Shown one piece after another: positions 20,888 through 64,000 of a stretch of 64,000 nucleotides of DNA; within the stretch, counting starts at the first letter, position 1, and every line of letters starts with the position of its first letter. A model generated the notes under the pieces. The model was not told where the DNA came from. It did no database searches and saw nothing but the letters and a program-made list of their open reading frames with translations. This DNA is from Phycisphaerales bacterium (GTDB lineage: Bacteria > Planctomycetota > Phycisphaerae > SM23-33 > FEN-1343): positions 2,518-66,517 of the forward strand of contig PMYD01000082.1 in the NCBI GenBank assembly GCA_003171335.1. Reading direction: 5' to 3'. The position numbers and the translations under genes were made by a program.

Positions 20888-22156
20888 ATGTCATTAGAAT
20901 CGCTGATGTTAAAGCACATTCGCCTGGATGGCGACACGCAGACGCGTGTGAAGATGTCGGACAAGCTGATTGATGAATACGCCCGCCAGATGGCGGAAGG
21001 GGACGACTTTCCGCCCCTGGCGGTCATGTTCGATGGTGTGGACCACTGGCTGTACGACGGTTTTCACCGGTACTACGCCGCCGTGCAGCTTGGCCGCGAG
21101 CGATTGCCGGTCGAGGTGAAGGAGGGCACGCGGGAGGATGCCATCTGGGAGTCGCTGGGGGCAAATAAGACACACGGACTGAGGTTCACCTCAAAGGACA
21201 AGGCCAAGGCGATACGTAAGGCCTTGGAAAATTGGACAGATAGGACGGATGGCTACATCGCCAAGCACATAGGAGTTGACGAGAAGACCGTGAAGAAATA
21301 TCATCTGGAGCGGATTTCACGTCCGGAAATTCCGGACGTGAACCCCCGCCCAGATGCCTCAACTGAGGAATTTCCGCAGTTCGAGTTCGATGGAAGGCCC
21401 TCACGTCCGGGAATTCCGGACGTGAACCGCCGGCCAAATGCCTCAACTGAGGAATTTCCGCAGTTCGCGGTCGATGGAAGGCCTTCACGTCCGGAAATTC
21501 CGGACGTGGACCCCCGCCCAAGTACCTCAACTGAGGAATTTCCGCAGTTGGCGGTCGATGGAAGGCCTTCACGTCCGGAATTTCCGGACGTGACTCACGC
21601 GGAGAAATCCCCAACTGCGGAAATTCCGCAGTTGACCCGGCGTCTTGGGGCTGACGGCAAGTGGTACAAGCCTCGAAACAAACCCATCATCGGCCCGGAT
21701 CGCCGGCCGGCGCCGCCCGAGCCGGGGGCTCTGGCCAAGGAGCCGCCCGAGCGGGACATGCTTGGCCGGCCGTTTGAAGGCCCGCACGCCGAGCGGATGC
21801 GGCAGGTGTTCTCGTTTCAGCCGCGGATTGCCCAGCAGGTGCATCTCTTGGGCAGCCTGGGCGGTTTCATGCGCGACATGGCCGGCGATGGGCACCTAGT
21901 GTACGGGAAGATCGACCTGCCGCGTTTTCACGCTGGGCTCCGCCGGGCCATGAGCGCCCTCATGCGGATCTGCCCGCACATCATCTGCCCGCGCTGCCGC
22001 GGAGCCGGCTGCCAAGTCTGCCGCGGCTGGGGCTGGATTGATCAATGGGGCTGGCTCTCCTACGGCCGGCGGGGGCGAGTTGGTCCAGCTCAAGAAAACG
22101 GCGAACACGAAGACCACGAAGATCACAAAGAGCACAAAGAAAGGCCAAGAGAATGA
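20888..22156 (+). CDS. ParB/Srx N-terminal domain + HTH protein with internal palindromic repeat array and C-terminal CxxCxGxG zinc finger
   Basis: TQTR..IDEYA..FPPL..LYDGFHRYYAA..AN.THG; HTH TDGYIAKHIGVDEKTVKKY; RRLGADGKWY; CPRCRGAGCQVCRGWG. Confidence 0.85.
   Translation: MSLESLMLKHIRLDGDTQTRVKMSDKLIDEYARQMAEGDDFPPLAVMFDGVDHWLYDGFHRYYAAVQLGRERLPVEVKEGTREDAIWESLGANKTHGLRFTSKDKAKAIRKALENWTDRTDGYIAKHIGVDEKTVKKYHLERISRPEIPDVNPRPDASTEEFPQFEFDGRPSRPGIPDVNRRPNASTEEFPQFAVDGRPSRPEIPDVDPRPSTSTEEFPQLAVDGRPSRPEFPDVTHAEKSPTAEIPQLTRRLGADGKWYKPRNKPIIGPDRRPAPPEPGALAKEPPERDMLGRPFEGPHAERMRQVFSFQPRIAQQVHLLGSLGGFMRDMAGDGHLVYGKIDLPRFHAGLRRAMSALMRICPHIICPRCRGAGCQVCRGWGWIDQWGWLSYGRRGRVGPAQENGEHEDHEDHKEHKERPRE
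21316..21634. repeat. Eight ~23-27-bp palindromes at 42-bp spacing (84-bp tandem unit x4) inside the ParB-like gene
   Basis: Alternating CACGTCCGGAAATTCCGGACGTG and CAACTG(A/C)GGAAWTTCCGCAGTT. Confidence 0.95.
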
Positions 22157-22233
22157 GGTTTTTTGGCATTCTCTTATCCCTGCCCTTGTTTTTCTTCCTT
22201 CGTGCCCTTCGTGATCTTTGTGGTCTTTGTGGT
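22103..22233. repeat. CACAAAG-family inverted repeat overlapping the 3' end of the ParB-like gene
   Basis: Left arm encodes EHEDHEDHKEHKE. Confidence 0.85.
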
Positions 22234-22310
22234 TGGCCTTTCTTTGCGGCGGCGGCTGCCATGACGAACAGGCCTTGGGTTTTCGACCCGAATCGTCCAT
22301 GATATTCATC

Positions 22311-23132
22311 ATGCAATACCTGTGGCTGGTACCCCTGGGCGTCTTCATCGGCGCGTTCGGCACGCTGATTGGCGCTGGCGGCGGGTTTATGCTCGTGCCG
22401 ATCCTGCTGCTGGTGTACCCGCAGGAGCAGCCCGCCACGCTGACGGCCATCTCGCTGGGCGTGGTGTGCTTCAACGCCACCAGCGGGTCCATCTCGTACG
22501 CGCGGATGGGGCGGGTGGATTTTCGCTCGGGCCTGTTGTTCCTGCTGACGGGCATTCCCGGGGCGATCGCCGGTGCGTATCTCGTGCACTACATCCCCCG
22601 GCACACGTTTGAAGTGGTTTTCGGCTGCCTGATGGTGGCGGCCGGGGCGTTCATTTTCTTCCGCAGCTATGGGCCGCACGAGCGAACCCGGGCCGGGCAG
22701 ATGGGGTTTCATCGCGAGCTGATCGACGCCGAGGGCCATAGGCACGAGTGGTCGTACAACCTGGCGGCGGGCATGACGCTCAGCGCGTTTGTGGGCCTGG
22801 CCTCCAGCATCCTGGGCATCGGCGGGGGCATCATTCACGTGCCGGCGATGGTGAGCCTGCTGAATTTCCCCGTGCATTTCGCCACGGCCACCAGCCATTT
22901 CATCCTGGCGGCCATGTCGCTGGCCGGCACCATCGAGCACATCGCCGATGGCACGTTGGGCCGGCCGCAGGCGGCCCGCCTCGTGGCGATAGGCCTGGGT
23001 GCGATGGTCGGGGCGCAAATCGGGGCGCGGCTGTCGCGGCGGATTCACGGCCGCTGGATCATGAAGAGCCTGGCCGTGGCGCTGGGTCTGGTCGGCGTGC
23101 GGATTCTCGTGGCGGCGGCGATGAGCCGCTAG
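22311..23132 (+). CDS. TauE/SafE (sulfite exporter family) membrane protein
   Basis: GTLIGAGGGFMLVP and SILGIGGGIIHVP, ATATSHF. Confidence 0.9.
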   Translation: MQYLWLVPLGVFIGAFGTLIGAGGGFMLVPILLLVYPQEQPATLTAISLGVVCFNATSGSISYARMGRVDFRSGLLFLLTGIPGAIAGAYLVHYIPRHTFEVVFGCLMVAAGAFIFFRSYGPHERTRAGQMGFHRELIDAEGHRHEWSYNLAAGMTLSAFVGLASSILGIGGGIIHVPAMVSLLNFPVHFATATSHFILAAMSLAGTIEHIADGTLGRPQAARLVAIGLGAMVGAQIGARLSRRIHGRWIMKSLAVALGLVGVRILVAAAMSR

Positions 23133-23240
23133 GCTGTAGACTATAGACTGTAGGCTGTAGGCTGTAGGAACGACCGGAGCGAGCGGACTTGCTTCTTCCG
23201 CAGTGCCTCCGCCTAAAGCCTACAGCCTATAGCCTGCCTA
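23130..23240. repeat. GCTGTAG/CTACAGC heptamer inverted repeat element
   Basis: Copies at 45220-45367, 46445-46565, 55045-55065. Confidence 0.85.
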
Positions 23241-23582
23241 GTAGTTGTAATTAAACGGCTCGGGCTCGCTGTTGGACTCCACGACGGCGCGTTCCAGCCA
23301 CATGCGGGCGCGGTCGTGGGCCGGGTCGGAGTCCAGGCAGGAGCGGTAGTAGAAGATGGCCTGCGGCAGGTTGCCTTCCTTGTGGGCGATGCGGCCCATG
23401 GCGTAGAACGCCTCGGCCTCATCGGGGTAATAGTACAGCGTGCGCTGGAAGGTGGCCTTGGCCTGCTCGGCGCGGCCGGCGATGAACTGATTCTTGCCCG
23501 TTTCGAGCAGTTCCTGGCGCGAAGGCGCGCAGCCCATCATCAGACCGGCCAGCACAGCCGCGGCGAGTATCGCTTTGCCCAT
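23238..23582 (-). CDS. TPR lipoprotein
   Basis: Lipobox-like LMMGC; TPR helices AEAFYAMG..AIFYYRSCLDSDP. Confidence 0.8.
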   Translation of the reverse strand: MGKAILAAAVLAGLMMGCAPSRQELLETGKNQFIAGRAEQAKATFQRTLYYYPDEAEAFYAMGRIAHKEGNLPQAIFYYRSCLDSDPAHDRARMWLERAVVESNSEPEPFNYNY

Positions 23583-23816
23583 TGATGCATCCTTTCCTGC
23601 CTCCAGGAGGCCTGAGGCCTCCTGTGTCCCTTTTGCTCTGCCTTCCGATTGGCGAGAACGTCTTGCCTCAGGCCAGAAAGTAGAAAGTAGACCGCAGGAG
23701 GCAACTGCACTATTGCGGCGCCGGCGGCGGGGCAATTCCGGCCGTCTGCTCTACTCTCTCCTTTCCGCTTTCTCCTGCTCTAGCTCGCTGCCGAGCAGCG
23801 AGCTAACATAGTACCG

Positions 23817-24233
23817 ATGGAATGTCCGTTTGTCATCCAATTCCACGCCAGCCCGCGCGGAGATCATTTTGACCTGATGATCGCCCAAGGCAAGACCCTG
23901 GCCACGTTTGAATTGCCCTGCCCGCCGGCCAAGCTGGCGCGGGGTGAGCCGCTGCTCATCCGCCGGCTGGCCGATCACCGGATGGACTATCTCACCTACG
24001 AGGGCGAAATCTCCGGCGGCCGGGGAAGCTGCCGCATCGTCGATCGCGGGCTGGCCGTGGGCGAATTTGAGGGGCCGCGCTGGCAGTTCGAGCTGCGCGG
24101 GCAGGGGGAAAGTTCAAGCTTCAGCCTGGAATCGCTGGCCGATGGGCAGTGGCGGCTGGTCAAGCTCAAAGAATCAACCACAGAGGACACAGAGGAAGAA
24201 GAGAGTAACGGCCAAAGAAAAAGCGCGGACTGA
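23817..24233 (+). CDS. Stand-alone LigD N-terminal 3'-phosphoesterase-like domain protein
   Basis: FVIQFH..HFDL, DHRMDYLTYEGEI..G.G...IVDRG. Confidence 0.8.
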   Translation: MECPFVIQFHASPRGDHFDLMIAQGKTLATFELPCPPAKLARGEPLLIRRLADHRMDYLTYEGEISGGRGSCRIVDRGLAVGEFEGPRWQFELRGQGESSSFSLESLADGQWRLVKLKESTTEDTEEEESNGQRKSAD

Positions 24234-24521
24234 GAGACCACAGAGCCTGGGGAGAGAACGCAGAGAGGAAAAGCACGGTGACGGCCGAACGCAGGGTGCA
24301 AAGGCACGGTGACGGCCAAAAGAGCCGGCTGCCGCCATGACGACAACGCTCTTGACGACCCTCCGAAGCCGCCATGTCCTCCTCTGGGGCCGTTTCTTTT
24401 CCAGCCGTTCCTCTCTCTTTACCCCGTGTCCTCTGGCTGCCTTTTCTTCCTCCGTGCTCTCTCTATCCGGCCGTTTCTTCTCCGGCCGTCACTCTCTTTT
24501 CCTCTGTGTCCTCTGTGGTTG
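24175..24521. repeat. Long CACAGAG-family inverted repeat element
   Basis: CAACCACAGAGGACACAGAGGAAGAAGAGAGTAACGGCC with reverse complement; second copy at 25507-25788. Confidence 0.85.
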
Positions 24522-24536
24522 CCTTTTCTTCGTTTT

Positions 24537-25466
24537 TCATTCTGTCGCGCCCGGTCTATCCAACGCCGCCAGCTCCAGCGTGCAGCGGCCCTCTTCCAGC
24601 GTGATGCGGCGGATGCGGACGTTGCCGAAATGCTGGCGGATATCGAGCGAGACGGGTTTGCCATCCAGGGCGGCGGCGATGCCGGTGGCGGCGCGGCCAA
24701 AGATGGCGATCGCCTCCTGGCCGCCGCTGGCAGGCGCGGCGCTCAGGCGGCCGGCCTGGTCCCGGAGGCGGCGGATGAGCTGGGCCTTGTACTGCCGCAG
24801 CGCGGCCTCGGGCAGGGGAATGCGGCCGATGCGGGCGGAATCGATCTGCACGGTCATCTGCCCCATGTCATCGAAATTCAGCGACACATCCACGCCCACC
24901 ACCGCGGCCAGCCGGTCCAGCCGGCCGTAGAAGGTCAGCCGGCCGGGGCCAAAGGCGATCGCCGGCTGGCTGAGCCCCTGGGCCGCCAGCGGGCCGGCCA
25001 CCTGGCCGGAGGCGGCCGAAAGCCACTGGTTCACTTCCTCCTGGGTAATCGTAAACGTGCCGGCGACCGGCGCGGCCGGATCGGGTGCGGCATCGACGGC
25101 GGAGGTGGATACGGTCGAGCCATTCGCGGCCGATGTGGCACGGCCGCCCTCGGCCGTGGAGCTCAAATTGGCCTCGGCACAGCCGGGGTCGGCTGTGCCA
25201 CTCCCGGAGGCGGCGTGCGGGTGGTGCGCGCGGCCGGCCTGGCGCGGGTCCCAGCTACCCACCTCGCCAGCCAGCGAGCCGAATTGGAACAGCCGCTGGT
25301 TCATCGCCTGTCGCACCAGGTCGCGGTCTTCCAGGCTCAGCAGGATGGGCGTGTAGTCGTGCGGCTGGCCGCTGGCCTCCAGGTACAGCAGCACGCCGGC
25401 CACCACGAGCGCTGTCAGCAGGCCGGCGGTGGACCACAGGATGATGCGTCGGGTTCGTTTTTCCAT
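24537..25466 (-). CDS. Membrane-anchored hypothetical protein
   Basis: N-terminal TM; ITQEEVNQWL..ARIGRIPLP pattern; GC-rich codon usage. Confidence 0.65.
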   Translation of the reverse strand: MEKRTRRIILWSTAGLLTALVVAGVLLYLEASGQPHDYTPILLSLEDRDLVRQAMNQRLFQFGSLAGEVGSWDPRQAGRAHHPHAASGSGTADPGCAEANLSSTAEGGRATSAANGSTVSTSAVDAAPDPAAPVAGTFTITQEEVNQWLSAASGQVAGPLAAQGLSQPAIAFGPGRLTFYGRLDRLAAVVGVDVSLNFDDMGQMTVQIDSARIGRIPLPEAALRQYKAQLIRRLRDQAGRLSAAPASGGQEAIAIFGRAATGIAAALDGKPVSLDIRQHFGNVRIRRITLEEGRCTLELAALDRPGATE

Positions 25467-25506
25467 GAGGTACCGGCCGGCGATTGTACCGCGGCGGAGG
25501 GGGATA

Positions 25507-25788
25507 AGAAAAAGCAACCACAGAGCTCACAAAGAGAAAAAGAGAGTAACGGCCGGAAGAAAGACCGGAGTGAGAGAACACAGAGAAAAAGGGGAAAGGC
25601 AACCACTGAGTTCACAAAGTGAGAAGAGAGCAAGAGGCCGCAAAAAAAGACCGGATTGGGAGAACATAGAGACCGAAGGAGCAAGCCTCCGCGTTCTCAT
25701 GCTGGCCTCCGTGTGCTCCTAGTCCGGCAGTTTGCTTTTCCGGCCGTTACTCTCTTCCTCCTCCGTGTCCTCTGTGGTTGCTTTTCTT
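25507..25788. repeat. Long CACAGAG-family inverted repeat element
   Basis: Arms similar to the 24175-24521 element. Confidence 0.8.
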
Positions 25789-25916
25789 TCGTGCCGAACC
25801 GGAACGGCCCTTACAGCCGGCAAAGCCGGCATAAACGGACCACAAGGTGTCTGGCCGACCGGAATCGCCGGCCCGGATCGGCTGGCCAGGGGTAAAATCA
25901 CACCAGAGGACGAGAG

Positions 25917-26558
25917 ATGGAGTCGGACTTTTTCGCCATCCTGCAGTTGCGCCCAGGCCGCTACCAGAGGGACGCAATCGATCGGCAGTACCGGTCGGTG
26001 AAGCGGCAAATCCTGCGCCTCGGCGGCCCGGAGCGCCAGCGGCGGCTGGATGATGCCTTAATCGCCCGGTGCGTGCTGGCCAACAGCGGCCAGCAGGCGG
26101 CGCTGCTGCGCCGGCACATTGTTGCCATCCGCCGCCAGATACCGCGCGGGCCGGCCGCGATTGCGGTGCCCCGGCGCCGGCCAGTCCGACCAGCGATGGC
26201 GCCGCCGATCGGTGCGGCTGTCGGCGACGTTCATGCCCAATTCGCCCAGCGCGTAGCCGGGCAAATGGAGGATGGGCTGCTGCGCTTCACCGCCCGGCGG
26301 AGATTGCTGGAAGCGGCTGGCGAGTTGGGAATCGCGCCCTTTAAGGCGAACTTGATCATTGCCGAAGTCATTCATGAACGGCAAATTCCAAATCCCAAAT
26401 CCCAAATCCCAAACAAATTCCAAGCACCAAATTCCAAAACTCGGAATGAAGAACTCGCGGGTCGGCCGCACGGCGAGCATTACGGCCTGCGCCTCTTGAT
26501 CGCGCTGGTGCTTGCCACGGCCGGTGGCCTCGCGCTGACGGTCTGGTTGGTTCGATAA
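25917..26558 (+). CDS. Hypothetical protein with C-terminal TM and in-frame heptamer-repeat insertion
   Basis: LRFTARRRLL..A.ELGI.PFKANLIIAEV motif, then QIPNPKSQIPNKFQAPNSK, then TM. Confidence 0.65.
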   Translation: MESDFFAILQLRPGRYQRDAIDRQYRSVKRQILRLGGPERQRRLDDALIARCVLANSGQQAALLRRHIVAIRRQIPRGPAAIAVPRRRPVRPAMAPPIGAAVGDVHAQFAQRVAGQMEDGLLRFTARRRLLEAAGELGIAPFKANLIIAEVIHERQIPNPKSQIPNKFQAPNSKTRNEELAGRPHGEHYGLRLLIALVLATAGGLALTVWLVR

Positions 26559-26664
26559 ACGTCCCTTCTGCGGCAAGACCTGGATCTTTCCATGTGCGCG
26601 CTTCCTCGTTTGGTGCTTGGTGCTTGGGATTTGTTTGGGATTTGGAATTTGGGATTTGGGATTT
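26382..26664. repeat. AAATCCC heptamer element: left arm inside the CDS, right arm downstream of it
   Basis: Arms at 26382-26438 and 26609-26664. Confidence 0.85.
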
Positions 26665-26721
26665 CTTCTTCTCCCGCCCGCATTGACTCTGCTGGCGCAA
26701 GGCAGGTAGCATCTGGGCACC

Positions 26722-27297: not shown

Positions 27298-27360
27298 GCT
27301 GGGAATGCCGGCCGGGCAGAAGCGGCCCCAAACGAAAGCACGTGGTGATGTCCAAAAACA

Positions 27361-27408: not shown

Positions 27409-27423
27409 CAACTCCGATTCACC

Positions 27424-32195: not shown

Positions 32196-32199
32196 AAGC

Positions 32200-32322
32200 C
32201 GTAGCACGGGCGTCTCGCCCGTGAGTAGCACGGCCATCTTGGCCGTGTTTTCGGCAGTCTTTCTTCGATTCGCCACGGGCGAGACGCCCGTGGAACTCAT
32301 GGGCGAGACGCCCATGCTACGC
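32200..32322. repeat. REP cluster CACGGGCGAGACGCCCGTG
   Basis: Matches 6769-6922. Confidence 0.85.
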
Positions 32323-33574: not shown

Positions 33575-33575
33575 C

Positions 33576-33743
33576 GGCAAATCCCAAATTCCAAATCCCA
33601 AATCCCAAACAAGCACCAAATCCCAAGCTCCAAACGCTGCGCCGATAGTCCTGCTTGATTCCAGCGGAACGCTCGCGGGCAAAGTTTGGAATTTGGTGCT
33701 TGGAATTTGTTTGGGATTTGGGATTTGGAATTTGGGATTTGCC
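33576..33743. repeat. AAATCCC heptamer inverted repeat element
   Basis: Begins directly after the DUF1570 stop codon. Confidence 0.9.
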
Positions 33744-38405: not shown

Positions 38406-38447
38406 TCGCGTAACGGATCGCGGACCTCCGACTAAGTCGGAGGTCCA

Positions 38448-45170: not shown

Positions 45171-45219
45171 GGCACATGCCAGAATAGCCGGGCGGCCTGC
45201 GGCTGTCTATGCGCCTTGA

Positions 45220-45367
45220 GGCTGTAGGCTGTAGGCTGTAGGCTGTAGGCTGTAGGCTGTAGGGCTGTGGCCGACGGTCTTTCTGATAGCTTTCGGTTGG
45301 CAGCCTGAAAGATATGCCGTTTTGAGTTCTGGTCTTACCTATGGCCTACAGCCTATAGCCTAAAGCC
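45220..45367. repeat. GCTGTAG heptamer inverted repeat element
   Basis: (GGCTGTA)6 and CCTACAGCCTATAGCCTAAAGCC. Confidence 0.85.
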
Positions 45368-45371: not shown

Positions 45372-46451
45372 ATGAGCACAAAACCAATCACAATCACACC
45401 TCCCGCAACCGTTGTGGAATGGGTCGGCGGTGCGGCCGACGGGCACGTGCGCCTGCTGGATCAGACGGTGCTGCCGACCCAGGTGGGATATATCGACTGC
45501 CGCAGCACGGAAGAGCTGTGGGACGCGATCAAGCGGCTGGCCGTGCGCGGCGCGCCGGCGATCGGCGTGGCGGCGGCCTACGGCATGGTGCTGTCAGCGC
45601 GCGAGGCGGCCCATGAGGCCAAGATGTCCGGCCGGGCGTTCCGCGAGGTGCTCGCGGAGAAGGCCGAATACCTCAAGAGTTGTCGGCCCACGGCGGTGAA
45701 TCTGGCCTGGGCGGTGGAGCGGGCCCGGCGCGCGGCCAAGGGCGTGGCCGCCGAGCGCGCGGCCGAGAAAATCCTTACGGAGGCGCGCGAGATTCACCGC
45801 GAGGATGCGGCCATGTGCCGGGCGATCGGCGAGCATGCCGCCGCACTGATTCGCCGCTGCTCGGGCGTGCTGACGCATTGCAATGCCGGGGCCCTGGCCA
45901 CGGCGGGCATCGGCACGGCCACGGCGGGCATGTACGTCGCCCATGCGGCGGGACATGCCTTCTGCGTGTACTGCGATGAGACGCGGCCGCTGCTCCAGGG
46001 CAGCCGGCTGACGGCGTGGGAATTGTCGCAGGCGGGGATCAACGCCGTGGTCATCACCGACAACGTGGCCGGCCAGGTGATGCGCGAAGGCCGCGTGCAA
46101 CTGGTGATTACCGGGGCCGACCGCATCGCCGCCAACGGCGACACGGCCAATAAGATCGGCACGTACGGCCTGGCGATCCTGGCCCGCCATCACGGCATTC
46201 CCTTCTACGTGGCGGCGCCGGTCAGCACGTTTGACCTGTCGCTGGAGGATGGTTCAGGAATTCCCATCGAGCAACGCGATGCGGAGGAAATCACCGAGGG
46301 CCTGGGTCGACGCACCGCCCCCGACGGCATCGCCGTCTACGCCCCCGCCTTCGACGTGACGCCCGCCGGCCTGATCACCGGCATCATCACCGACCGCGGA
46401 ATCATCCAGCCGGTCACGGGGGACAAGATCCGGGAGAAGATCGGGCTGTAG
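45372..46451 (+). CDS. mtnA: Methylthioribose-1-phosphate isomerase
   Basis: LDQ..LP, VRGAPAIG, RPTAVNL, THCNAGALAT, ETRPLLQG, GADRIAANGDTANKIGT. Confidence 0.95.
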   Translation: MSTKPITITPPATVVEWVGGAADGHVRLLDQTVLPTQVGYIDCRSTEELWDAIKRLAVRGAPAIGVAAAYGMVLSAREAAHEAKMSGRAFREVLAEKAEYLKSCRPTAVNLAWAVERARRAAKGVAAERAAEKILTEAREIHREDAAMCRAIGEHAAALIRRCSGVLTHCNAGALATAGIGTATAGMYVAHAAGHAFCVYCDETRPLLQGSRLTAWELSQAGINAVVITDNVAGQVMREGRVQLVITGADRIAANGDTANKIGTYGLAILARHHGIPFYVAAPVSTFDLSLEDGSGIPIEQRDAEEITEGLGRRTAPDGIAVYAPAFDVTPAGLITGIITDRGIIQPVTGDKIREKIGL

Positions 46452-46565
46452 GCTTTAGGCTGTAGGCTGTAGGCTGTAGGCTGTAGCAACGGCGGGAAAA
46501 GACGGGATGCGCCTGCGTGTCTCTCTCCGGCCGTTCCTACAGCCTACAGTCTACAGCCTAAAGCC
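46445..46565. repeat. GCTGTAG heptamer inverted repeat element
   Basis: Starts at the mtnA stop codon. Confidence 0.85.
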
Positions 46566-46573
46566 TTCTCCCC

Positions 46574-47215: not shown

Positions 47216-47665
47216 GATAAAACCCTCTTGAGGCTCGCGTCACATCCGCCGTATGGCCGCACGCGCTGGCGTGCCTGGCTATGGATTCGTCCTGCGAGGC
47301 AAGAGGCTTTATCGCCAGCCCTGTGAAAAGGACAAAATGACCGCCGGCAGCGCATGACATCCGCCACAGCCGACCCCGTCATCACAGGCCGAACAACCCG
47401 TCAACTTTCGCTATGCCGCATGATCTTTCCAGTCGTGCCGCACAAACAATACAGGTGGCGCAACCGGCACGCTCAGCCTGCATTGCGCCATCTGAGGCTC
47501 AAAGGCCAATCGTTGACGGCAGCAACGCCGGCCATCGCGCAAAGCGGAGGAAGTGCCACTATAATCAAGTTTGTGGACGGCGGCGCGGGCATGACGCCGC
47601 CCGCGGGTTACCGGCGAACTGATGCCAGGAAAATGAACTTCTACTGCATCGAAAGGAGCATCCTC

Positions 47666-48082
47666 ATGGCAACAAACGTTGCTGAGCCTATGGTCAGCGA
47701 GGCCATTCAAACGGCCGACTGGAAGAAAGAAAAACACGTGCCGATCATCGAATGCCCCGACACGTTCACCAAGGACCAGATGACTGATGTGAAGGTGACC
47801 CTGGGCAAGGAGATCGCCCACCCCAACACCACCGAGCACCACATCCGGTGGATCGATCTGTACTTCCTGCCCGATGATGGCAGCAAATTCGCCTTCCAGA
47901 TCGCCCACTTCGAGTTCACGGCCCACGGCGAATCGGTCAAAGGGCCAAACCAGGGGCCGGTTTACACCCACCACAGCGGGGCCACCAGCATGAAAACCGC
48001 CGTCGGCGGTACGCTTCAGGCCCTGGCCTTCTGCAATATTCACGGCCTGTGGCAGTCGACCAAGAAGATCTCGGTGCAGTAG
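47666..48082 (+). CDS. Class II SORL / desulfoferrodoxin-type superoxide reductase domain protein
   Basis: EKHVP, HPNTTEHHIRWI, CNIHGLW; AAGGAG RBS. Confidence 0.9.
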   Translation: MATNVAEPMVSEAIQTADWKKEKHVPIIECPDTFTKDQMTDVKVTLGKEIAHPNTTEHHIRWIDLYFLPDDGSKFAFQIAHFEFTAHGESVKGPNQGPVYTHHSGATSMKTAVGGTLQALAFCNIHGLWQSTKKISVQ

Positions 48083-48112
48083 ATGGGCTGAGGCAGGCAT
48101 CGCGTGTTGCTG

Positions 48113-48359
48113 TCAGGTGTCCGCGACGGACACCTGAGGCGGGGAATTCAACTGTCCGCGGCGGACAGTTGAACCGGGGCCACGGAATCCGCATAAGTGT
48201 TACATTCTTCTTCATTTGCGGACGAGTGTAACACTTAAATCGAGAAGACCTCAGGTGTGCGCGGCGCACACCTCTGATTTTGGATCGCACCTTTAAACCG
48301 TTTAAAGGTGAAAGCGCCTATTAGTAATGATAAGGGTCACGTGCGCAATTGCGCACCTG
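48113..48359. repeat. Cluster of six different ~22-27-bp palindromes
   Basis: See findings; each is self-complementary, shared outer bases, different interiors. Confidence 0.8.
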
Positions 48360-48475
48360 CCTTGACCCGACCTGTCAAAATGCGCGCGCGGGGCACTTGG
48401 ACTGCCTAAACTGTCATTAGGGCGGATATGGGCTGATTTTGATAATGATAACATTAGCAATAACTTATGCTTTCC

Positions 48476-48491
48476 AGGCATGCTTATTGCA
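48476..48491 (+). promoter_or_regulatory. Putative sigma54 promoter of dnaK
   Basis: AGGCATGCTTATTGCA = GG-N10-GC, close to TGGCACG-N4-TTGCW. Confidence 0.6.
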
Positions 48492-48539
48492 TAATGCCAT
48501 TAGCAAGAATTCATACGCGATACCAGGAGTTTAAGAACA

Positions 48540-50471
48540 ATGGCAAGCAAGAAGATCATCGGCATTGACCTTGGCACCACCAACAGCGTCGTGGCCCTCA
48601 TGGAAGGCAGTGCCCCCAAGGTACTTATCAACCAGCAGGGCAGCCGGCTGACCCCCAGCGTGGTGGCCCTCACGGATAAGGGCGAGTGGTTAGTAGGCCA
48701 GGCGGCCAAACACCAGCAGGTGACCAACCCGAAGAACACCGTCTTCTCGATCAAGCGCTTCATGGGCCGGCGGCACAATGAAGTGGCCACGGAAGAGAAG
48801 ATGGTGCCCTACGAGATCGTCGGCGGGCCCGACGAGCTGGTGAAGGTCCGCATTCGCGGCAAGGATTACACGCCGCCGGAAATCTCGGCGATGATTCTCC
48901 AGGATCTCAAGAAGACCGCCGAGGACTACCTGGGCGAGAAGGTGGAGCGCGCCGTCATCACGGTGCCGGCGTACTTCAACGATGCCCAGCGCCAGGCCAC
49001 CAAGGATGCCGGCGAGATCGCCGGGCTGAAGGTCGAGCGCATTATTAACGAACCCACCGCCGCAGCGCTGGCCTATGGGCTCGAGAAGAAGCGCAACGAG
49101 AAGGTGGCCGTTTTCGACTTCGGCGGCGGCACGTTCGACATCTCGAACATGGACATCGGCGACAACGTCTTTGAAGTGCTCTCCACCAACGGCGACACGC
49201 ATCTTGGCGGCGATGACCTCGACGAGGTGCTCATCCACTACATCGCCGATGAGTTCAAGAAGCAGGAAGGCGTGGACCTGCGCACGGACCCGATGGCCCT
49301 CCAGCGGCTCAAGGAAGCCGCCGAGAAGGCCAAGTGCGAGTTGTCCACGGCGATGGAGGCGAGCATCAACCTGCCCTTCATCACCGCCACGCAGACCGGC
49401 CCCAAGCACCTGACGATGACGCTGACCCGGGCCAAGCTGGAGCAGCTCTGCGGGCCCGTCTTCGACCGGCTGGTGGGCCCGTGCAAGCAAGCCTTGGCCG
49501 ATGCCAAGGTCACCCCCGAGGATGTGGACGAGGTGGTGCTGGTCGGCGGCTCGACACGCATTCCGCGCGTCCGCCAGATCGCCAAGGACATTTACCGCAA
49601 GGAGCCCAACAAGAGCATCAACCCCGACGAGGTGGTGGGCCTGGGCGCCGCCGTCCAGGGCGGCATCCTGGCGGGTGAAGTGGAAGAGCAGATGGTGCTG
49701 CTGGATGTCACGCCGCTGTCGCTGGGCGTGGAGACGCTTGGCGGCGTGATGACCAAGCTCATCGAACGCAACACCACCATTCCCACGGAGAAGAAGGAAA
49801 CCTTCTCCACCGCCGCCGACAACCAGACCGAGGTGACCATCCACGTGCTCCAGGGCGAGCGCGATTTCGCCCGCGACAACCGCACGCTGGGGCGCTTTAA
49901 TCTGACCGGGCTGCCGCCGGCGCCGCGCGGGCTGCCGCAGATCGAGGTGACGTTCAATATCGACGCCAACGGCATCCTGAACGTTTCCGCCAAGGACCTG
50001 GCCACGAGCAAACAGCAGTCCATCGAGATCAAGGGCTCTTCCGGCCTCAACCAGGCCGAGATCGACCGCATGAAGAAGGATGCCGAGGAGCATGCCGCCG
50101 ATGACAAGCAGCGGCACGAACTGATCGACCTGAAGAACCAGGCCGATCACCTGGCCTGGACGGCCGAGAAGACGCTCCGCGAGCAGGGCGAGAAGGTTTC
50201 CGCCTCCGATCGCTCGAATATCGAGTCGGCCATCACCGCCGTGCGCGAGGCCAACAAGGGCGATGACGCCGAGGCCATTCGCCGCGCCATGAGCCGCCTG
50301 GAGCAGGCCAGTCACAAGCTGGCCGAGGCCATGTACGAGCAGGTCAAGGGCCAAAAAGCCCAGCAGGCCCCGCCCGGCCCCCAGCCGCAGGGCGAACAAC
50401 CCGGTGGCGAAGGCCCCAAGAAAGGCGGCGGCGACGACGTGATCGATGCGGAATATGAAGTGAAGGAATAG
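48540..50471 (+). CDS. dnaK: Molecular chaperone DnaK
   Basis: [39 protein letters not shown]. Confidence 0.98.
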
Positions 50472-57930: not shown

Positions 57931-57959
57931 CGTTCGGTTCCTTTCCTTTGCGACGCCAG

Positions 57960-58436: not shown

Positions 58437-58476
58437 TTGCGCTCGCTTTGCGGAAGGCACGTAACAAGAAAACGAC

Positions 58477-58608
58477 AGACACAAAGATCACAAAGGCCAC
58501 GAAGGTCACAAAGCAAGATCAGGGTAAAGGCAACACTGGCGTCCTTCTTCGTCTTTGCACTATTTGTCTCTCTTTGTGCCCTTTGTGATCTTTGTGGTCT
58601 TTGTGTTC
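58477..58608. repeat. CACAAAG-family inverted repeat between iorA and iorB
   Basis: Arms match 2905-3000. Confidence 0.85.
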
Positions 58609-58617
58609 CGCTTTGGT

Positions 58618-60216
58618 CTAAGACTGTCCCGGCTGGACCTGCCGGATCCGCTTGGCCGCCAGCGGGCACGGCCGGCGGATGATAATGACGTTGAGCCGGC
58701 CGTTGGCCAGGCTCTCCTCCAGCAGCCCCCGCAGGCGATCGCGCTGGCTGATCGGGTCGATCACGGCCACGCAGGGCACGCCTACCGCCTTGGCCAGGGC
58801 CTCGATGGAAAGCTGCGCCGCCGGGCCATGGTCCAGGCGGCGGCCGGTGGCCGGATGCTCCTGCAAACCGGTCATGGCGGTTGTGCCATTATCGAGGATG
58901 ATCACCACGTGCCCGGTGGCCGGCGGGTTATACACCATCTCCACCAGGCCGGTGATGCCGCTGTGCACAAACGTGCTGTCGCCAATGACGCTGACGACCC
59001 GCCGCGCCTGCTCCTCGCCCAGCACGTGCCGCAGGCCCAGCCCCACGCTGATGGAAGCGCCCATGCACACGCAGGTGTCCATCGCCTCAAAGGGCGGCAG
59101 CACGCCCAGCGTGTAGCAGCCGATGTCGCCGGCGACCACGCAGCCCAAGTCGCGCAGGGTCTCGAACGTCAGGCGATGCGGGCACCCGACACACAGTTGC
59201 GGCGGCTTGCCCTTGGCCGGCTGGGGCTCCGCGCTGCGGTCGTTCGCCAGGATTCGCGCCACGCGCTCGACGGACAGTTCGCCAAAGCGGTACATCTCCG
59301 GCTGGGCATCCACCGCGATGCCGGCCGCACGAATCGATTCGGCCAGGTACGGATCGCCCTCCTCGATCACCAGGCAGCGTTTGACCGAGCGGGCAAAGCG
59401 GGCGATCTTGCCCACGGCCAGCGGATACGTCATGCCCAACTTGAGCACGGCCGCCGCCGGCGCCGCCTCGCGGGCGTGCATCGTGCTGATGCCCGAGGTG
59501 ATGATGCCCAGCTCGCCGCCGGGTGAGCCGGGCGAATAAACCTTGTTCAGCTCCGCGGTCTCGCTCCACTGGGCGATCGCCGCGAGCTTGGCCCGCAGCC
59601 GGCGGTGGGCCAGACGGGCATAGGTGGGGATCATGACGCGACCTTGAACATCCCGTTCATAATGCGGTGCGGCGGCGGGCCGATTCAGCGTTCGGCGCTG
59701 CACGATGGTCTTGGAGTGGCACACCCGCGTGGTCACGCGCAGCAGCACCGGGATGGACCAGCGCTCGGAAATTTCGATGGCGGCGGCGGTGAAATCGTAC
59801 GCCTCCTGCGAGTCGGCCGGCTCGAGCATGGGCAAACCCGCGGCGACGGCATAGCGGCGGTTGTCCTGCTCGTTCTGGCTGGAGGCCAGGCCCGGGTCAT
59901 CCGCCGAGACGACCACCAGCGCACCCGTCACGCCCGTATAGGCCGCGGTGAATAGCGGGTCGGCGGCGACGTTGAGACCCACATGCTTCATCGTCGCCAC
60001 GGCCCGCGCGCCGGCGAACGCGGCCCCCAGCGCCACCTCCAGCGCCACCTTCTCATTGGGCGACCACTGGGCGTAACCACCCAGCGATGAGAAAACCTCC
60101 AAGATCTCCGTCGACGGCGTGCCCGGATAGCCCGCCCCCAGGGCCACGCCGGCGTCCAGGGCCGCGCAGGCGATGGCTTCGTTGCCACTCAAGAGTTTAC
60201 GGTCAGGCTCACTCAT
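58618..60216 (-). CDS. iorA: Indolepyruvate:ferredoxin oxidoreductase alpha subunit (no C-terminal ferredoxin domain)
   Basis: GNEAIA, YPGTPSTE, NEKVA, MKHVGLNVAAD, SSQNEQD, LCVGCPHR, GDIGCY, GDSTF.HSG, DN.TTAMTG. Confidence 0.92.
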   Translation of the reverse strand: MSEPDRKLLSGNEAIACAALDAGVALGAGYPGTPSTEILEVFSSLGGYAQWSPNEKVALEVALGAAFAGARAVATMKHVGLNVAADPLFTAAYTGVTGALVVVSADDPGLASSQNEQDNRRYAVAAGLPMLEPADSQEAYDFTAAAIEISERWSIPVLLRVTTRVCHSKTIVQRRTLNRPAAAPHYERDVQGRVMIPTYARLAHRRLRAKLAAIAQWSETAELNKVYSPGSPGGELGIITSGISTMHAREAAPAAAVLKLGMTYPLAVGKIARFARSVKRCLVIEEGDPYLAESIRAAGIAVDAQPEMYRFGELSVERVARILANDRSAEPQPAKGKPPQLCVGCPHRLTFETLRDLGCVVAGDIGCYTLGVLPPFEAMDTCVCMGASISVGLGLRHVLGEEQARRVVSVIGDSTFVHSGITGLVEMVYNPPATGHVVIILDNGTTAMTGLQEHPATGRRLDHGPAAQLSIEALAKAVGVPCVAVIDPISQRDRLRGLLEESLANGRLNVIIIRRPCPLAAKRIRQVQPGQS

Positions 60217-60236
60217 GCTTGAAAATGTAACGGGAA

Positions 60237-60291
60237 AAATCCCAAATCCCAAATCCCAAATCCCAAACAAATCCCAAGCTCCAAATTCCAA
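60237..60291. repeat. Single arm of the AAATCCC heptamer element
   Basis: (AAATCCC)3 AAAC AAATCCC AAGCTCC AAATTCC. Confidence 0.8.
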
Positions 60292-60300
60292 ACGAAACAA

Positions 60301-60339
60301 TAAAAAACAGCGGGCCGCCTTTTGAGGGGCGGCCCGCCG
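60301..60339 (-). terminator. Terminator after the porin gene
   Basis: GCGGGCCGCC..GGCGGCCCGC hairpin followed by T6 on the minus strand. Confidence 0.7.
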
Positions 60340-60364
60340 CGATGTTCGAACTACCGGCTTGGGC

Positions 60365-61843
60365 TTACCAGGTGAAGACCAACTCGTAGCGGCCGAAGAA
60401 GGCCACGTCGTTGGCGGCATCAGAGTAGTAGTTGCCCGGGAGGAACACTTCGCCCTGCAGGTGGCCGGCGATGTGCTCGTTGAACTGGTACTTCATCAAC
60501 GCGGTGAGCAACTGGCCGCGGAAGTGGCCTTCCGAGGTCGTCGAGGCGTTGTCCACGTTGTTGTTATAGGCAAACAACAGGTGATAGTTGGCCTGGAAGG
60601 TCAGCGGCTTACAGGGCGTGAAGCCGGCGCCGACGTACAGGCGGTGCAGGTCGGACGAGGCGGCCGGCCGGCCGTCGATCGTGTCCATGTAGCCGTTGTA
60701 CAGATCGCTCCACTGCGGATAGCGGCCCCACAGGATGTTGAAGTCCTGGGCCGGATCCTTGCCGCCGGAACGAACTTCGTAGCCCGCCCAGGCGGCCGTG
60801 TCGTAGTCATCGTGGAAGTTGTAGGTCAGCCGGCTGTTGAGGCCCCAGGCGCCGCAAACGCTGTGCGAGGTGGCTTCCGGCGTGAACCCGGAACCGATCT
60901 GGCTGTTGCCGAACTGGAACGCGCCTTCCGCGCTGCCCTGGATGTTGTCCGTCATATCGCCCGCCACGCGGGTACCCAGCGTGTAGATGTCGGCGAAGCT
61001 GCCGTCTTCCTCCACGCCCGGGGCGCCTTCCAGCGCGCCGGCGTGGTAGTAGATGAAGTACGGTTCAATCGTGGTGCTCTGGATCGACTTGTTCGAGGCA
61101 TACAGGATGATGCCGCGCTCGTTGTTCTCGGCGATGTACCGGCCCTTGACGCCCGCCGCCATGGTATCGTTGAAGTTCGGGATCATGCTGTCCTGGGAGT
61201 CGGCGCGATTCTCGATGTACACCGCGTCAAACGTGGTGTTCATCTCGTCGGCCTTGTACGTGCCACGGATGGCGTCGAAGTACACGGTCCGCGAGCCATC
61301 GCCCGGCGTGCCTTCGAAGACCAGCCAGCCATCGCCGAAGCGCATCTGCTGGCGGCCAACCGTCACGGCCAGCGGCATGTCCGCAATGTTCGCCCAGCGG
61401 ACATTCAAATCATCCACCGTCACCACGGTATCCGGGGTACTGGGCCCGGTGTCCGGCCTGCAAATCTCCCACCATTCCCAGACGACGCGGGCGTTGATGG
61501 ACAGGTCCAGATCCTCCACCGGCTTGATCTGCGTCCACAGCCGCGGACGAATCCGCGTCCACAGGTCCTCGTTGCCCAGGCCGGTCGAGTGATGCTCGTC
61601 CAGCAACGGATCCCTCATGTACTCTTCGCGGAAGCGGATGTCGAAGCCCCAGTTCATCCACGGCACCAGCTCGTTGACGGCCCGCTTGCTCTCGCAGATG
61701 CCGCAATACTCCTGCGTCGTGGCTGTGGTTTCCTGGATGCCCTGCGGAACGCCGGGCTTGTCCTGGGCCCAGGCCGACTGGGCCAGCATCACCGATGCCG
61801 CCAACGCGGCCAGCAACATCACCATCACACTCGTCGTTTTCAT
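60365..61843 (-). CDS. Alginate-export-family outer membrane beta-barrel protein
   Basis: Signal peptide, R.REE, GRQ.MRFGDGWLVFEG, FDAIR, C-terminal aromatic ELVFTW. Confidence 0.8.
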   Translation of the reverse strand: MKTTSVMVMLLAALAASVMLAQSAWAQDKPGVPQGIQETTATTQEYCGICESKRAVNELVPWMNWGFDIRFREEYMRDPLLDEHHSTGLGNEDLWTRIRPRLWTQIKPVEDLDLSINARVVWEWWEICRPDTGPSTPDTVVTVDDLNVRWANIADMPLAVTVGRQQMRFGDGWLVFEGTPGDGSRTVYFDAIRGTYKADEMNTTFDAVYIENRADSQDSMIPNFNDTMAAGVKGRYIAENNERGIILYASNKSIQSTTIEPYFIYYHAGALEGAPGVEEDGSFADIYTLGTRVAGDMTDNIQGSAEGAFQFGNSQIGSGFTPEATSHSVCGAWGLNSRLTYNFHDDYDTAAWAGYEVRSGGKDPAQDFNILWGRYPQWSDLYNGYMDTIDGRPAASSDLHRLYVGAGFTPCKPLTFQANYHLLFAYNNNVDNASTTSEGHFRGQLLTALMKYQFNEHIAGHLQGEVFLPGNYYSDAANDVAFFGRYELVFTW

Positions 61844-62401
61844 GCTCCCGGGCTCCTTTCAGCCTTCTTGGGGGCGCTCCGATTGCCCTTGCGCAAAATG
61901 CCCCAACTCAGTAGTTCGATCATCAAACCAAATTTCGGCGGTAAAACAAGCCGTGCTGCCTAAGGTATTCACCGGCCCTGGCCGTTCCTGGGTCGCCGCA
62001 AAGGGCATTCCAAATTCGGCCAACGCGCTACCGTGGACACTTCTGACCTGCTTCCAAAAGGCGCATCCAACCACCCGATGCCCCGATACAGGACCACGGC
62101 GGTCGTATCCAATCACCGAAAGGCGGATCTTTTGCAAGTAAAATTTAGTTCCCGTTAATCGCTTGTTTTTTCCCGCTGCGGCGGGTTTGCCGCCACACAC
62201 CGATCGGCCCCTCGGGCGACCCAAGCCGCCAACGATTCATTACATCAGCTAGTGCAATGGCTTGCGACAAGCACTCGCCGCTGGCGAGCCATGTTACAAG
62301 GCACACAGCGGCATGTCGGCAATGGGCGCGACCGGGCCTGCCGCCCGGGTCGGCCAAAAAGTGCGTGAGCCGCCGGCGCCCCCGCGGTACGCTGGCGGGG
62401 C

Positions 62402-63256
62402 ATGCTAGGCTGCCATCTTTCCATCGCCGGGGGCGTACACAACGCCCTGCTGGAGGCCATCAGCCTGGGCACGGACTGCGTGCAGATTTTTACGCAGAAC
62501 CAGCGGCAGTGGGCCGGTCGGGCGCTTTCGCAAGATGAACTGGCTAACTGGCAGGCGGCCCGCCGCCAGGCGAAACAGGCCGCGATTATCAGTCACGGCA
62601 GCTATCTCCTGAACCTCGCCAGCCCCGATTGGCCGCTGCGCCGCCGGTCGATCGCGCTTCTGGAGCAGGAGCTGGCCCGCTGCAAAGCGCTGGGGATTTC
62701 GGCGGCCGTGGTGCATCCCGGCTCGCACATGGGCGCGGGACTGAGCGAGGGGCTGCGACGAGTGGCGCGTTCGCTGGACCTGCTGCATAAACGCTGTACT
62801 AGAAACCCCGTCATGGTGGGCCTGGAAAACACCGCCGGCCAGGGCGACGGCGTGGGCTGGCGGCTGGAACAGCTTGCCTGGGTGCTGGAACACGTTGATT
62901 CCCCCGCCCGCGTGGGCATCTGCCTCGACACGGCTCACCTGCTGGCGGCCGGCTACGACCTCACCAGCGGCGACAGCGCCGAAAAGGTGCTGGAGGAGGT
63001 CGATCGCGTGATCGGTTTGGCGCGAGTGCTGGCCGTGCACCTGAACGATTCGAAGGCGCCCCTGGGCAGCCGCGTGGACCGCCACGAGCATATCGGGCAC
63101 GGCCACGTTTCGTTGGCGGCCTTCGCCGCCTTCATCAACCATCCGCGCCTGCGCTGTGTGCCCCAGGTGCTCGAGACGCCCAAAGAAACCGCCCCCGACG
63201 GCCGGCCGTGGGACTTGGTCAATCTGCTCACCCTGCGGTCGCTCCAGCGGGCCTGA
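62402..63256 (+). CDS. nfo: Endonuclease IV
   Basis: GCHLSIAGG, QIFT, HGSYLLNLAS, HPGSH, ENTAGQG, DTAH, HLNDSK, DRHEHIG, ETP. Confidence 0.95.
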   Translation: MLGCHLSIAGGVHNALLEAISLGTDCVQIFTQNQRQWAGRALSQDELANWQAARRQAKQAAIISHGSYLLNLASPDWPLRRRSIALLEQELARCKALGISAAVVHPGSHMGAGLSEGLRRVARSLDLLHKRCTRNPVMVGLENTAGQGDGVGWRLEQLAWVLEHVDSPARVGICLDTAHLLAAGYDLTSGDSAEKVLEEVDRVIGLARVLAVHLNDSKAPLGSRVDRHEHIGHGHVSLAAFAAFINHPRLRCVPQVLETPKETAPDGRPWDLVNLLTLRSLQRA

Positions 63257-63392
63257 GAACGTGTATGAAAACCGGCTCCGATCGTGGCACGGCCATCTTG
63301 GCGGTGAATCCGGCCGTTTCTTGCGCCGCCACGGGCGAGACGCCCGTGGGACTCATGGGCGGGACGCCCATGCCACGTTTCCATACACATTC
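63256..63392. repeat. REP cluster CACGGGCGAGACGCCCGTG with AGAACGTGTATGAAAA / TTTCCATACACATTCT flanks
   Basis: Matches 6769-6922, including the right flank. Confidence 0.85.
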
Positions 63393-63451
63393 TGAGTGGC
63401 GAGTAAGCTCCTTTGCTGCCGTAATCACGTCCTGCCGTCAAAAAAAGACTC

Positions 63452-63479
63452 TTGACAGCCACGAAAATGCGGATAAAAT
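63452..63479 (+). promoter_or_regulatory. Near-consensus sigma70 promoter
   Basis: TTGACA-N16-TAAAAT. Confidence 0.6.
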
Positions 63480-63724
63480 CTTACTAACTATCCGTAGCTA
63501 GGCCTGTCTATAGGATAAGCAATGGTGCTGGCCTGGAAATTGAATGCTTCTGAAAGCCGAGTAGGTTAGACTTGCCAAGCTGGCTGCGCGACCAGAATAG
63601 TTCTTCCGGTCCGCCAGATGCTTCGAGATATATGGTAAGATATTATTACATAAGTAATTATGCGATCTTAGCCGCAGGCGGGGCGAGTTGCGCCCCCCGG
63701 TGGTCCAAGCCAATGCTTTTGGCC

Positions 63725-63975
63725 TCAACTGGTGAAATTCACCAGTTGACTGCCTTCCGGCCGTGCGAGGGGTCGGATTCCGGCCCTTACGCTCCAGCCC
63801 CAACTGAGGAATTTCCTCAGTTGAGGAAAATTCGGGCAGGCGAGGGGTTCGGGTCCAGCCCTTACGCCCAGGCCTCGACTGGTGAATTTCACCAGTTGAG
63901 CACCATCCGGACAGGCGAAAGGTGCAATTCCAGCCCTTACGCTCCGGCCCCAACTGAGGAATTTCCTCAGTTGAA
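63725..63975. repeat. Array of four 23-bp palindromes at 75-bp period (may continue beyond the window)
   Basis: CAACTGGTGAAWTTCACCAGTTG alternating with CAACTGAGGAATTTCCTCAGTTG; centres 63737, 63812, 63887, 63962. Confidence 0.92.
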
Positions 63976-64000
63976 CACTATCGGGCCGGGCTTACCACGC

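Follow-up and report, generated by a model that had tools for sequence, protein, structure and literature searches.

Twenty-three-bp palindromes inside ParB-like genes and in helically phased arrays of a Phycisphaerales genome: candidate binding sites of a paralogous protein family

What are the 23-bp palindromes that recur, with differing letters and similar geometry, in a stretch of Phycisphaerales DNA, and how are they related to the ParB-like gene that contains some of them? The stretch, referred to here as the window, comprises 64,000 nucleotides (GenBank assembly GCA_003171335.1, contig PMYD01000082.1, positions 2,518 to 66,517 of the forward strand) and is part of the contig labelled C44 in a genome, G000, whose assembly amounts to 4.2 Mb in 169 contigs with 64% GC. 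A preliminary description, made from the letters of the window, had proposed a system at 20888-64000 that consists of a ParB-like helix-turn-helix (HTH) protein and palindromes at three loci, namely inside the gene, upstream of dnaK and at the right edge. All three loci were found as claimed on re-scanning, so the loci are real; the local span was wrong, the feature being genome-wide, with 163 clusters, and not bound to one gene. The loci in the window, with a further single site, are as follows.

20888-22156, plus strand: gene for a 422-amino-acid ParB-like protein (translation, paralog alignment)
21316-21634 (sites 21318-21634): array of eight family palindromes in 42-bp steps, inside the ParB-like gene (dyad scan; Tandem Repeats Finder, TRF)
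21612-21634: perfect palindrome CAACTGCGGAAATTCCGCAGTTG at the conserved position after the HTH, encoding PTAEIPQL
38423-38445: single perfect 23-bp palindrome GACCTCCGACTAAGTCGGAGGTC, intergenic and nested in a longer inverted repeat
48113-48359: mixed array of differing palindrome types, between a desulfoferrodoxin-like gene and dnaK
63726-63973: tandem array of four palindromes in exact 75-bp steps, GTGAA and AGGAA types alternating, at the right edge

The dyads of the in-gene array comprised four perfect palindromes, two with one mismatch and two with two mismatches, and alternated between the CACGTCCGGAA type and a CAACTG[A/C]GGAA type (TRF period 84, 3.8 copies). These sites share one reading frame, start at the second codon position and encode SRPEIPDV and STEEFPQ[FL] peptide repeats. 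Upstream of dnaK (open reading frame (ORF) 48540-50471; HSP70 match, E 1.9e-253) there are four clear palindromes (48114-48136, 48149-48171, 48252-48274 and 48288-48310) and looser dyads at 48195-48238 and 48337-48358. The right-edge array terminates within the window, and a near-identical CAACTG-AGGAA-type site is common to this array and the ParB-like gene, in agreement with the shared site reported in the preliminary description. The outer pattern put forward there, CANST-N13-ASNTG, had 13 matches in the window compared with a mean of 2.71 over 100 shuffles, none of which reached 13. DNA of the window's genome recurs in peat metagenomes. Contigs of four public peat-metagenome runs, one of which may be the source sample of the assembly, partly covered the dnaK array with 0 differences, indicating that the array does not come from a single assembly. 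Over 47300-49300 these runs contained no other letters, and there were no indels or joints inside the dnaK array; no one contig spans the whole array, and short contigs tend to stop near palindromes.

Genome-wide, 293-294 perfect odd-centred 23-bp palindromes (11-bp arms, 1-bp centre) were identified, compared with 16-18 having a centre of 0 or 2 bp and with 1-4 odd-centred palindromes in three first-order Markov genomes. The perfect copies have 66 distinct arms, 53 of which begin with C and 54 of which have T at position 5. An outer pattern C[AG]NNT[CG] is common to approximately 50 arms, while the inner five bases vary freely and stay complementary. The commonest types were CAACTGAGGAA (40 copies), CAACTGCGGAA (33) and CGACTCCGACA (21), followed by CAACTGGAGAA (19), CAACTGGTGAA (17) and CACGTCCGGAA (15). 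With no more than one mismatch and the outer pattern required, the family comprises 425 copies, whose flanks often lengthen the dyad by a T at -1 (58%) and an A at +24 (52%). About 95% of these copies were intergenic (359) or lay beyond the last gene of a contig (43), with only 23 being genic, compared with 81% of random positions. The 23 genic copies fall in nine ORFs, eight of which are ParB-like paralogs.

The 163 clusters consist of 68 singles, 25 pairs and 70 groups of three to twelve sites. Types form guilds, with GGAA and GACA types with an A/T centre making up periodic arrays and TCCGC, TGCGC, TAAAC and GTCAA types making up mixed arrays, such as the one before dnaK. By orientation of the spacer, 103 sites are divergent, 178 tandem and 78 convergent. 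Since the same 23-mer can recur at up to 40 loci with unrelated spacers around it, some copying mechanism must exist. One observation outside the window concerns a membrane-protein ORF of the same genome (C165:44930-47005), the frame of which continues through a nine-palindrome array; the run-on encodes STxEIxQL and RPEFPDV peptides, as in the ParB-like linker, and is probably a read-through artefact of the gene caller.

Searching the genome with tblastn and a profile recovered 10 paralogs of the ParB-like gene, the window copy (C44) included, and two C-terminal fragments at contig ends. The preliminary description had suggested testing whether each paralog has a palindrome after its HTH, and a family palindrome was present just after the recognition helix in 10 of 10. 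Named by contig, the paralogs carry the following sites.

C37, C82, C148 and C150 paralogs: embedded site of GTGAA type
C45 and C168 paralogs: embedded site of AGGAA type
C113 and C44 paralogs: embedded site of CGGAA type
C159 paralog: three copies of TTTAAAC type
C25 paralog: degenerate copy of GAGAA type
C168 paralog, second site: perfect palindrome of CAGTTCAGGCT type, 42 bp upstream

Together the ten genes contain 23 family-type sites, every one of which starts at the identical codon position. The embedded sites use rare codons (TCA 2.6%, ACT 3.0%, GGT 6.2%, CCT 4.6% and TTG 8.8% of their synonymous sets), and the encoded residues covary in pairs (E..P, G..H, A..P), which indicates that the dyad is kept as DNA. 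In an AlphaFold2 model the site-encoded peptide forms an ordered connector from the recognition helix to a beta-hairpin. Compared with its paralogs, the window gene has an in-frame repeat insertion of approximately 98 amino acids after the HTH, with seven extra palindromes upstream of the ancestral one at 21612-21634; it is this last site that aligns with the single site of other paralogs and with a pile-up of palindromes in homologs at gene offset 420-540.

The protein family is large, with 5360 representative clusters at E <=1e-30, and is largely viral (90 relatives in IMG/VR; nearest Atlas clusters 56-88% viral). A set of 144 non-redundant loci was assembled from genomes, viral contigs and metagenomes. 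These loci contained 44 perfect palindromes (arms of at least 9) at gene offset 420-539, compared with 0-4 in the other 60-bp bins from -1500 to +2500. When at least 10 of 11 arm pairs were required, 39 of 131 loci had a palindrome at offset 400-560, with none at 60-220 and three at 700-860, so that the position predicted in the preliminary description is occupied in homologs as well (10 of 21 genome loci, 13 of 63 viral loci and 16 of 47 metagenome loci). The embedded sites differ widely in sequence between lineages, including Planctomycetota, Terriglobia and Thauera, and no second copy of the site was found in the fetched flanks (1.5-4 kb) at 38 of 42 homolog loci. In two loci, from a Phycisphaerae metagenome-assembled genome (MAG; L038) and a metagenome contig (L189), an even-centred 22-bp palindrome occurs twice in the gene, at offsets of approximately 438 and 845.

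Differences between half-sites followed those in the recognition-helix region when the N-domain was taken into account (partial Mantel r 0.517, n=43, with 0 of 2000 permutations as high), while the reverse partial correlation, of half-site with N-domain, was 0.096 (n=43). The covariation of HTH residues with the inner arm, which the preliminary description had put forward as a test, was detected. Examples of helix-site pairings are DHKT with GGGGAA, DHNT or DHVT with GGTGAA, and SDKT, DDKT or DEKT with CGGAA. This co-variation, observed in sequences, is support for recognition and not proof of it.

Distances between neighbouring sites had peaks at 21, 32, 42, 53, 63, 75 and 84 bp. The best period in a scan from 7.0 to 14.9 bp was 10.6 bp, with R = 0.379 for all 262 distances and R = 0.365 for the 223 distances that remained when each spacing value was counted once per array (Rayleigh approximately 1e-13). 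Spacers of equal length were mostly unrelated in sequence, with all eleven 53-bp cases being different, indicating that the spacing is kept rather than a common repeat unit. The sites probably act as duplex DNA rather than as RNA or classic repetitive extragenic palindromes (REPs).

What kind of protein is encoded by the gene? In the 422-amino-acid product a ParB_N domain and an HTH are followed by a linker of variable sequence, and then by a long helical hairpin and a zinc ribbon (CxxC...CxxC). Pfam ParB_N matched 8 of the 10 paralogs (the C45 copy scoring 29.1 compared with a cut-off of 26.3), PHROG 1033 ('ParB-like partition protein') matched the window copy at 1.9e-17 and the paralogs at 1e-16 to 1e-22, and a paralog profile matched sulfiredoxin (3e-4) and Spo0J (4e-3) in the PDB. 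The AlphaFold2 model, of the compact C45 paralog and built with 72 homologs, had a mean predicted local distance difference test (pLDDT) score of 88.9. Its best Foldseek matches were Noc (7nfu, E 8e-8), CTP/CDP-bound ParB (7bnk/6sdk) and KorB (8qa9), at E 8e-8 to 8e-6 in alignments of 150-166 columns covering the N-domain plus HTH. Together with the ParB_N matches, these confirm the earlier identification of a ParB-N-plus-HTH protein. A homodimer model scored 0.73, compared with 0.03 for the best control. Of the 30 solved pairs used to calibrate the tool 20 reach this mark, as does one of the 23 single chains. Its interface consists of residues 225-285 and 301-305, in the helical hairpins, with contact agreement between runs of at least 62% and partner pLDDT of at least 67. 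As a prediction, this model supports, rather than demonstrates, pairing of the chains via their helical hairpins.

At the Box II position the family has DGFHRY(K), compared with GERRYR in Spo0J, and the GCHRY of sulfiredoxin aligns better (HMMER alignment). G61 and R64 are invariant, and at least 90% of the 72 homologs have D60, F62 and H63 as well. NCBIfam scores were far under the cut-offs, with 23.9 compared with 58.45 for parB_part (TIGR00180) and at most 27.2 compared with 315 for Noc (TIGR04285), and the window copy had no match at all to either model. On account of these scores and of DGFHRY at Box II, the protein is, as judged from its sequence, not a canonical ParB or Noc, and the same data lend no support to the loading and sliding as a CTP clamp that the preliminary description had envisaged. 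ATP- and GTP-binding variants exist according to the accessible part of a ParB-fold survey (bioRxiv 10.1101/2025.10.10.680097). The neighbours of the 10 paralogs vary in size and order; they were not annotated by family, and no shared helicase or loader and no ParA partner was seen among them. PADLOC gave no defence match for the three paralogs tried. A 448-amino-acid ORF at 19234-20580 (minus strand) adjoins the ParB-like gene; it has a low coding score and no match in Pfam, NCBIfam or PADLOC, and may be foreign DNA.

To what extent are genes and sites shared with relatives? Among 31 genomes the ParB-like gene is patchy, being present in seven (E <=1e-10), and several copies were found only in G000 (12 matches, 10 genes) and in a congener, a Phycisphaerales MAG (G003; 5 matches) that coordinates show to be the same assembly as G001. 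A single gene with exactly one site, located in the gene, was found in Thauera terpenica and in two relatives (G011 and G008) of the same family or order. In the congener, four to five paralogs carry a TGTAAAC-type site, of which there are 12 copies; the nine copies outside the paralogs fall in sequence without coding capacity for the protein, seven of them in clusters of two to six different palindromes. Similarity among the C150, C82, C148 and C37 copies extends from approximately 220-250 bp upstream to the stop codon only, and that among the congener's paralogs covers approximately 370 bp upstream plus most of the gene; by this comparison the paralogs have neither conserved neighbours nor recognisable mobile-element ends. 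Both paralogs and arrays are expanded only in this genus, one gene and one site being the rule elsewhere.

The arrays themselves differ between the congeners. The CAACTG-NGGAA type has 78 copies in G000, three in the congener and none in the 29 other relatives. The dnaK spacer holds six dyads in G000 and one different palindrome in G003, the two genomes aligning too poorly across this array to define insertion boundaries, and the spacer after an AP-endonuclease-like gene holds the right-edge array of 75-bp steps in G000 and no palindrome in G003. The single palindrome at 38423 lies within a stretch of approximately 320 bp that is absent from G003 and also holds a small ORF; a clean empty site or target duplication was sought there by comparison with G003 and none was definable. 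These differences at orthologous spacers indicate that the arrays are young and labile, and on this comparative evidence they are not conserved regulators of neighbouring genes.

The explanation that we favour, with a probability of roughly 0.6, is that dimeric ParB-like HTH proteins bind the 23-bp palindromes as double-stranded DNA and that larger complexes are nucleated at the arrays. The N-domain of the protein would be of the ParB/sulfiredoxin type and its HTH would have a short beta-hairpin, while the helical hairpin and zinc ribbon at the C-terminus would pair two chains. Each gene carries its own site approximately 10 codons past the recognition helix, and with the site inside the gene the specificity determinant and its target would be inherited as a unit and could change together. 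Most genomes and phages have one gene and one site, both of which have multiplied in this Phycisphaerales genus. Array neighbours lie on the same helix face, at multiples of approximately 10.6 bp, as cooperative higher-order complexes require, for example those on tandem plasmid centromere repeats or iterons.

Several observations weigh against this explanation. The window's own copy matches nothing in Pfam and has a low coding score (29.5 for 422 amino acids), and just 30-44% of homolog loci show an embedded palindrome. Linkage of helix and site could partly cause the co-variation signal, kinship among the 43 rows having been removed only in part, and the phasing counts are not wholly independent, some arrays being of common ancestry. 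The division into genic and intergenic copies relies on a crude codon-usage gene caller. The expectation of one paralog per site type was not borne out, with resident paralogs representing approximately seven arm types and approximately 133 of 294 perfect copies; the arms of the remaining 55% or so, including CGACTCCGACA (21) and CAGGGGCGAAA (14), are carried by no resident paralog, in an assembly that is 91% complete and has paralogs at contig ends, so that some may be missing. Finally, the array differences between congeners fit selfish spread as well as they fit function.

Selfish spread is the main rival, although an unlikely one. It holds that the palindromes are REP-like miniature mobile elements without host function, copied by a Y1 (IS200/RAYT-type) transposase or by a ParB-like nuclease, with the arrays as insertion hot spots. 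Should the ParB-like protein itself do the mobilising, this account would overlap with the binding-site explanation. The identical 23-mers among unrelated spacers mark the palindrome as the copied unit, copy numbers differ between congeners (78 versus 3 for one type), arrays are present or absent at orthologous spacers, and the genome has eight strong Y1_Tnp genes, including the window's own at 18531-18983. In the accessible text of one account, REPs and bacterial interspersed mosaic elements are short (20-40 bp), high-copy, mostly intergenic and often clustered palindromes, with several families per genome, each tied to one gene (PMC3733652). The palindromes described here resemble them in size and intergenic habit, and the physical link of every ParB-like paralog with one palindrome type is like that of REP-associated tyrosine transposases (RAYTs) with REPs. 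However, none of the eight Y1_Tnp genes has a family palindrome within 1.5 kb and no GTAG or CGTC tag stands beside the stem in the 425 copies, by which a RAYT/REP pair was ruled out as the driver. Further differences are that the dyads here are perfect around a single central base, and that the gene linked with them is a ParB-like one with the palindrome inside its coding sequence instead of in its flanks. Helical phasing is not predicted by random insertion, nor does insertion account for a position and frame in the gene that stay fixed across phyla. Neither a clean empty site nor a target duplication was found, and no indel variant was present in the four metagenome runs. The selfish explanation accounts for the turnover of arrays but not for their phasing or for the fixed position in the gene.

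An improbable alternative is that the protein is a replication initiator of phages or mobile elements, with the embedded palindrome as origin or iteron and the chromosomal arrays as ectopic iterons. Phage lambda provides the model, since its O gene contains the origin (four 19-bp repeats), to which the N-terminal half of O binds, according to the accessible part of PMC4488673. In lambda O, too, the protein's own dyad-symmetric sites are encoded past its DNA-binding half, and the eight linker sites of the window copy resemble this arrangement; the likeness is confined to layout. The family is also largely viral, as noted above, and its phage neighbours include an SF2 helicase beside the gene (L053), a DnaC-like loader 1.4 kb off (L059) and an exonuclease VIII nearby (L048), although this context comes from 3 of 80 viral loci. 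Unlike multi-iteron origins, most homolog loci have a single site (38 of 42 with no second copy, as above). The fold is that of ParB, Noc and KorB, unrelated to lambda O and not that of a known initiator, no helicase or loader recurs beside the 10 solitary paralogs, whose neighbours were compared by size and order, and 163 clusters spread through a bacterial chromosome would make no sense as origins. Least probable is a role of the palindromes as hairpins in RNA (terminators, stabilisers or attenuators) with an incidental ParB-like link. In its favour, many arrays start 7-50 bp past a gene end, and RNA with a 10-bp stem and a 3-nt loop would be stable. Against it, the sites are found in spacers of all three orientations, sense-strand mismatches in co-directional spacers show no clear preference (G-T 24 versus A-C 17), the window has no Rfam match at gathering thresholds, and neither spacing at multiples of 10.6 bp nor co-variation with the HTH helix would be expected of hairpins.

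If the palindromes are binding sites, how does the arrangement compare with known systems? ParB/parS, Noc/NBS and KorB/OB share the N-domain and HTH fold and have palindromic sites, the dimer being predicted here by a model; Noc also has dispersed chromosomal sites, as in this genome. One B. subtilis parS is located inside spo0J. The family described here differs from ParB, Noc and KorB in having DGFHRY rather than GERRYR at Box II, a C-terminal helical hairpin and zinc ribbon, 23-bp odd-centred sites in approximately 50 variants, phased multi-type arrays, and an in-gene site that is fixed right after the HTH family-wide. In tandem plasmid centromeres and iterons, for example sopC of F, each tandem unit has one palindromic site for a ParB-family protein, at whole-helical-turn spacing, a layout that the arrays resemble. 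Here, in contrast, there are 163 chromosomal clusters, with several types mixed in one array and units that range from 21 to 84 bp. Structural neighbours in the Atlas include NovG_helical/ParB_N proteins of Actinomycetota (TM 0.56, residues 3-303), and by this likeness StrR/NovG-type regulators share the succession of ParB_N, HTH and helical domain. These regulators are transcription activators that bind inverted repeats; to our knowledge they have no zinc ribbon, embedded site or site arrays.

Other repeats were observed in the window. Within 18295-18983, the IS200-type Y1 transposase gene at 18531-18983 (minus strand, Y1_Tnp E 5e-20) adjoins 2.2 copies of a 103-bp repeat that contains a GTAG-led GC-rich dyad; the two are possibly a classic REP/RAYT pair unrelated to the 23-bp family. 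Inverted pairs of tandem runs, with approximately four copies of CACAAAGAC followed by approximately four of its complement, were found at 2908-3001, 8804-8961, 16362-16516, 22106-22233 and 58480-58605. They lie just past genes, would fold as long hairpins and have many copies in G003; the pair at 22106-22233 includes the final codons and the stop of the ParB-like gene (end 22156) and continues into the spacer. Intergenic CAAATCC runs facing TTTGGGA runs occur at 15434-15591, 26382-26664, 33578-33741 and 60237-60293. A repeat of approximately 124 bp that contains GTGGCACGGGCGTCTCGCCCGTGA occurs at 6769-6902, 32200-32321 and 63284-63380, with more than 80 copies in the genome, one of which directly follows the C150 paralog, and more than 45 matches in G003. 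Runs of the heptamer AGGCTGT/TAGGCTG and of its complement are located in spacers at 23130-23168, 45219-45268, 46444-46486 and 46536-46566.

What might the complexes do? Nucleoid organisation, silencing or activation as by KorB or StrR, or titration of phage proteins could each be their role. A specific version of the last, for which we see little likelihood, is that the arrays are a heritable, fast-changing decoy library that soaks up the ParB-like proteins of incoming phages, each with a specificity of its own encoded in its gene, and that types without a paralog represent past phage specificities. Ectopic copies of the lambda origin stop lambdoid phages, according to the accessible portions of PMC4488673 and PMC3349717. 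By analogy the decoy principle would have a laboratory precedent in lambda origins, with no known natural example. Exact-match scans of IMG/VR with the cores of the CGACTCCGACA and CACGTCCGGAA types hit 0 contigs each, a result that bears neither way on decoys.

What appears to be new is the embedded, co-varying site and the phased multi-type arrays, while a ParB-type protein with palindromic sites and dispersed bacterial palindromes are of known kinds. No description of an embedded co-varying site in a ParB-like family or of multi-type phased arrays was found in the literature, supplementary family lists being outside the search, and in the accessible text of the ParB-fold survey (bioRxiv 10.1101/2025.10.10.680097) the terms 'palindrom' and 'zinc' occur 0 times each. 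How perfect 23-bp dyads are copied and stay symmetric is a puzzle in its own right. If binding is true, a large, mostly phage-borne branch of the ParB fold would write its target into the linker just after the recognition helix, so that specificities would be readable from sequence and a recognition code could be extracted, for example H versus D/E opposite G versus C. One chromosome would then hold hundreds of phased sites, in dozens of variants, for a family of paralogs. Nucleoid organisation, regulation or defence would then have a layout of a new kind, in a phylum whose cell biology is unusual.

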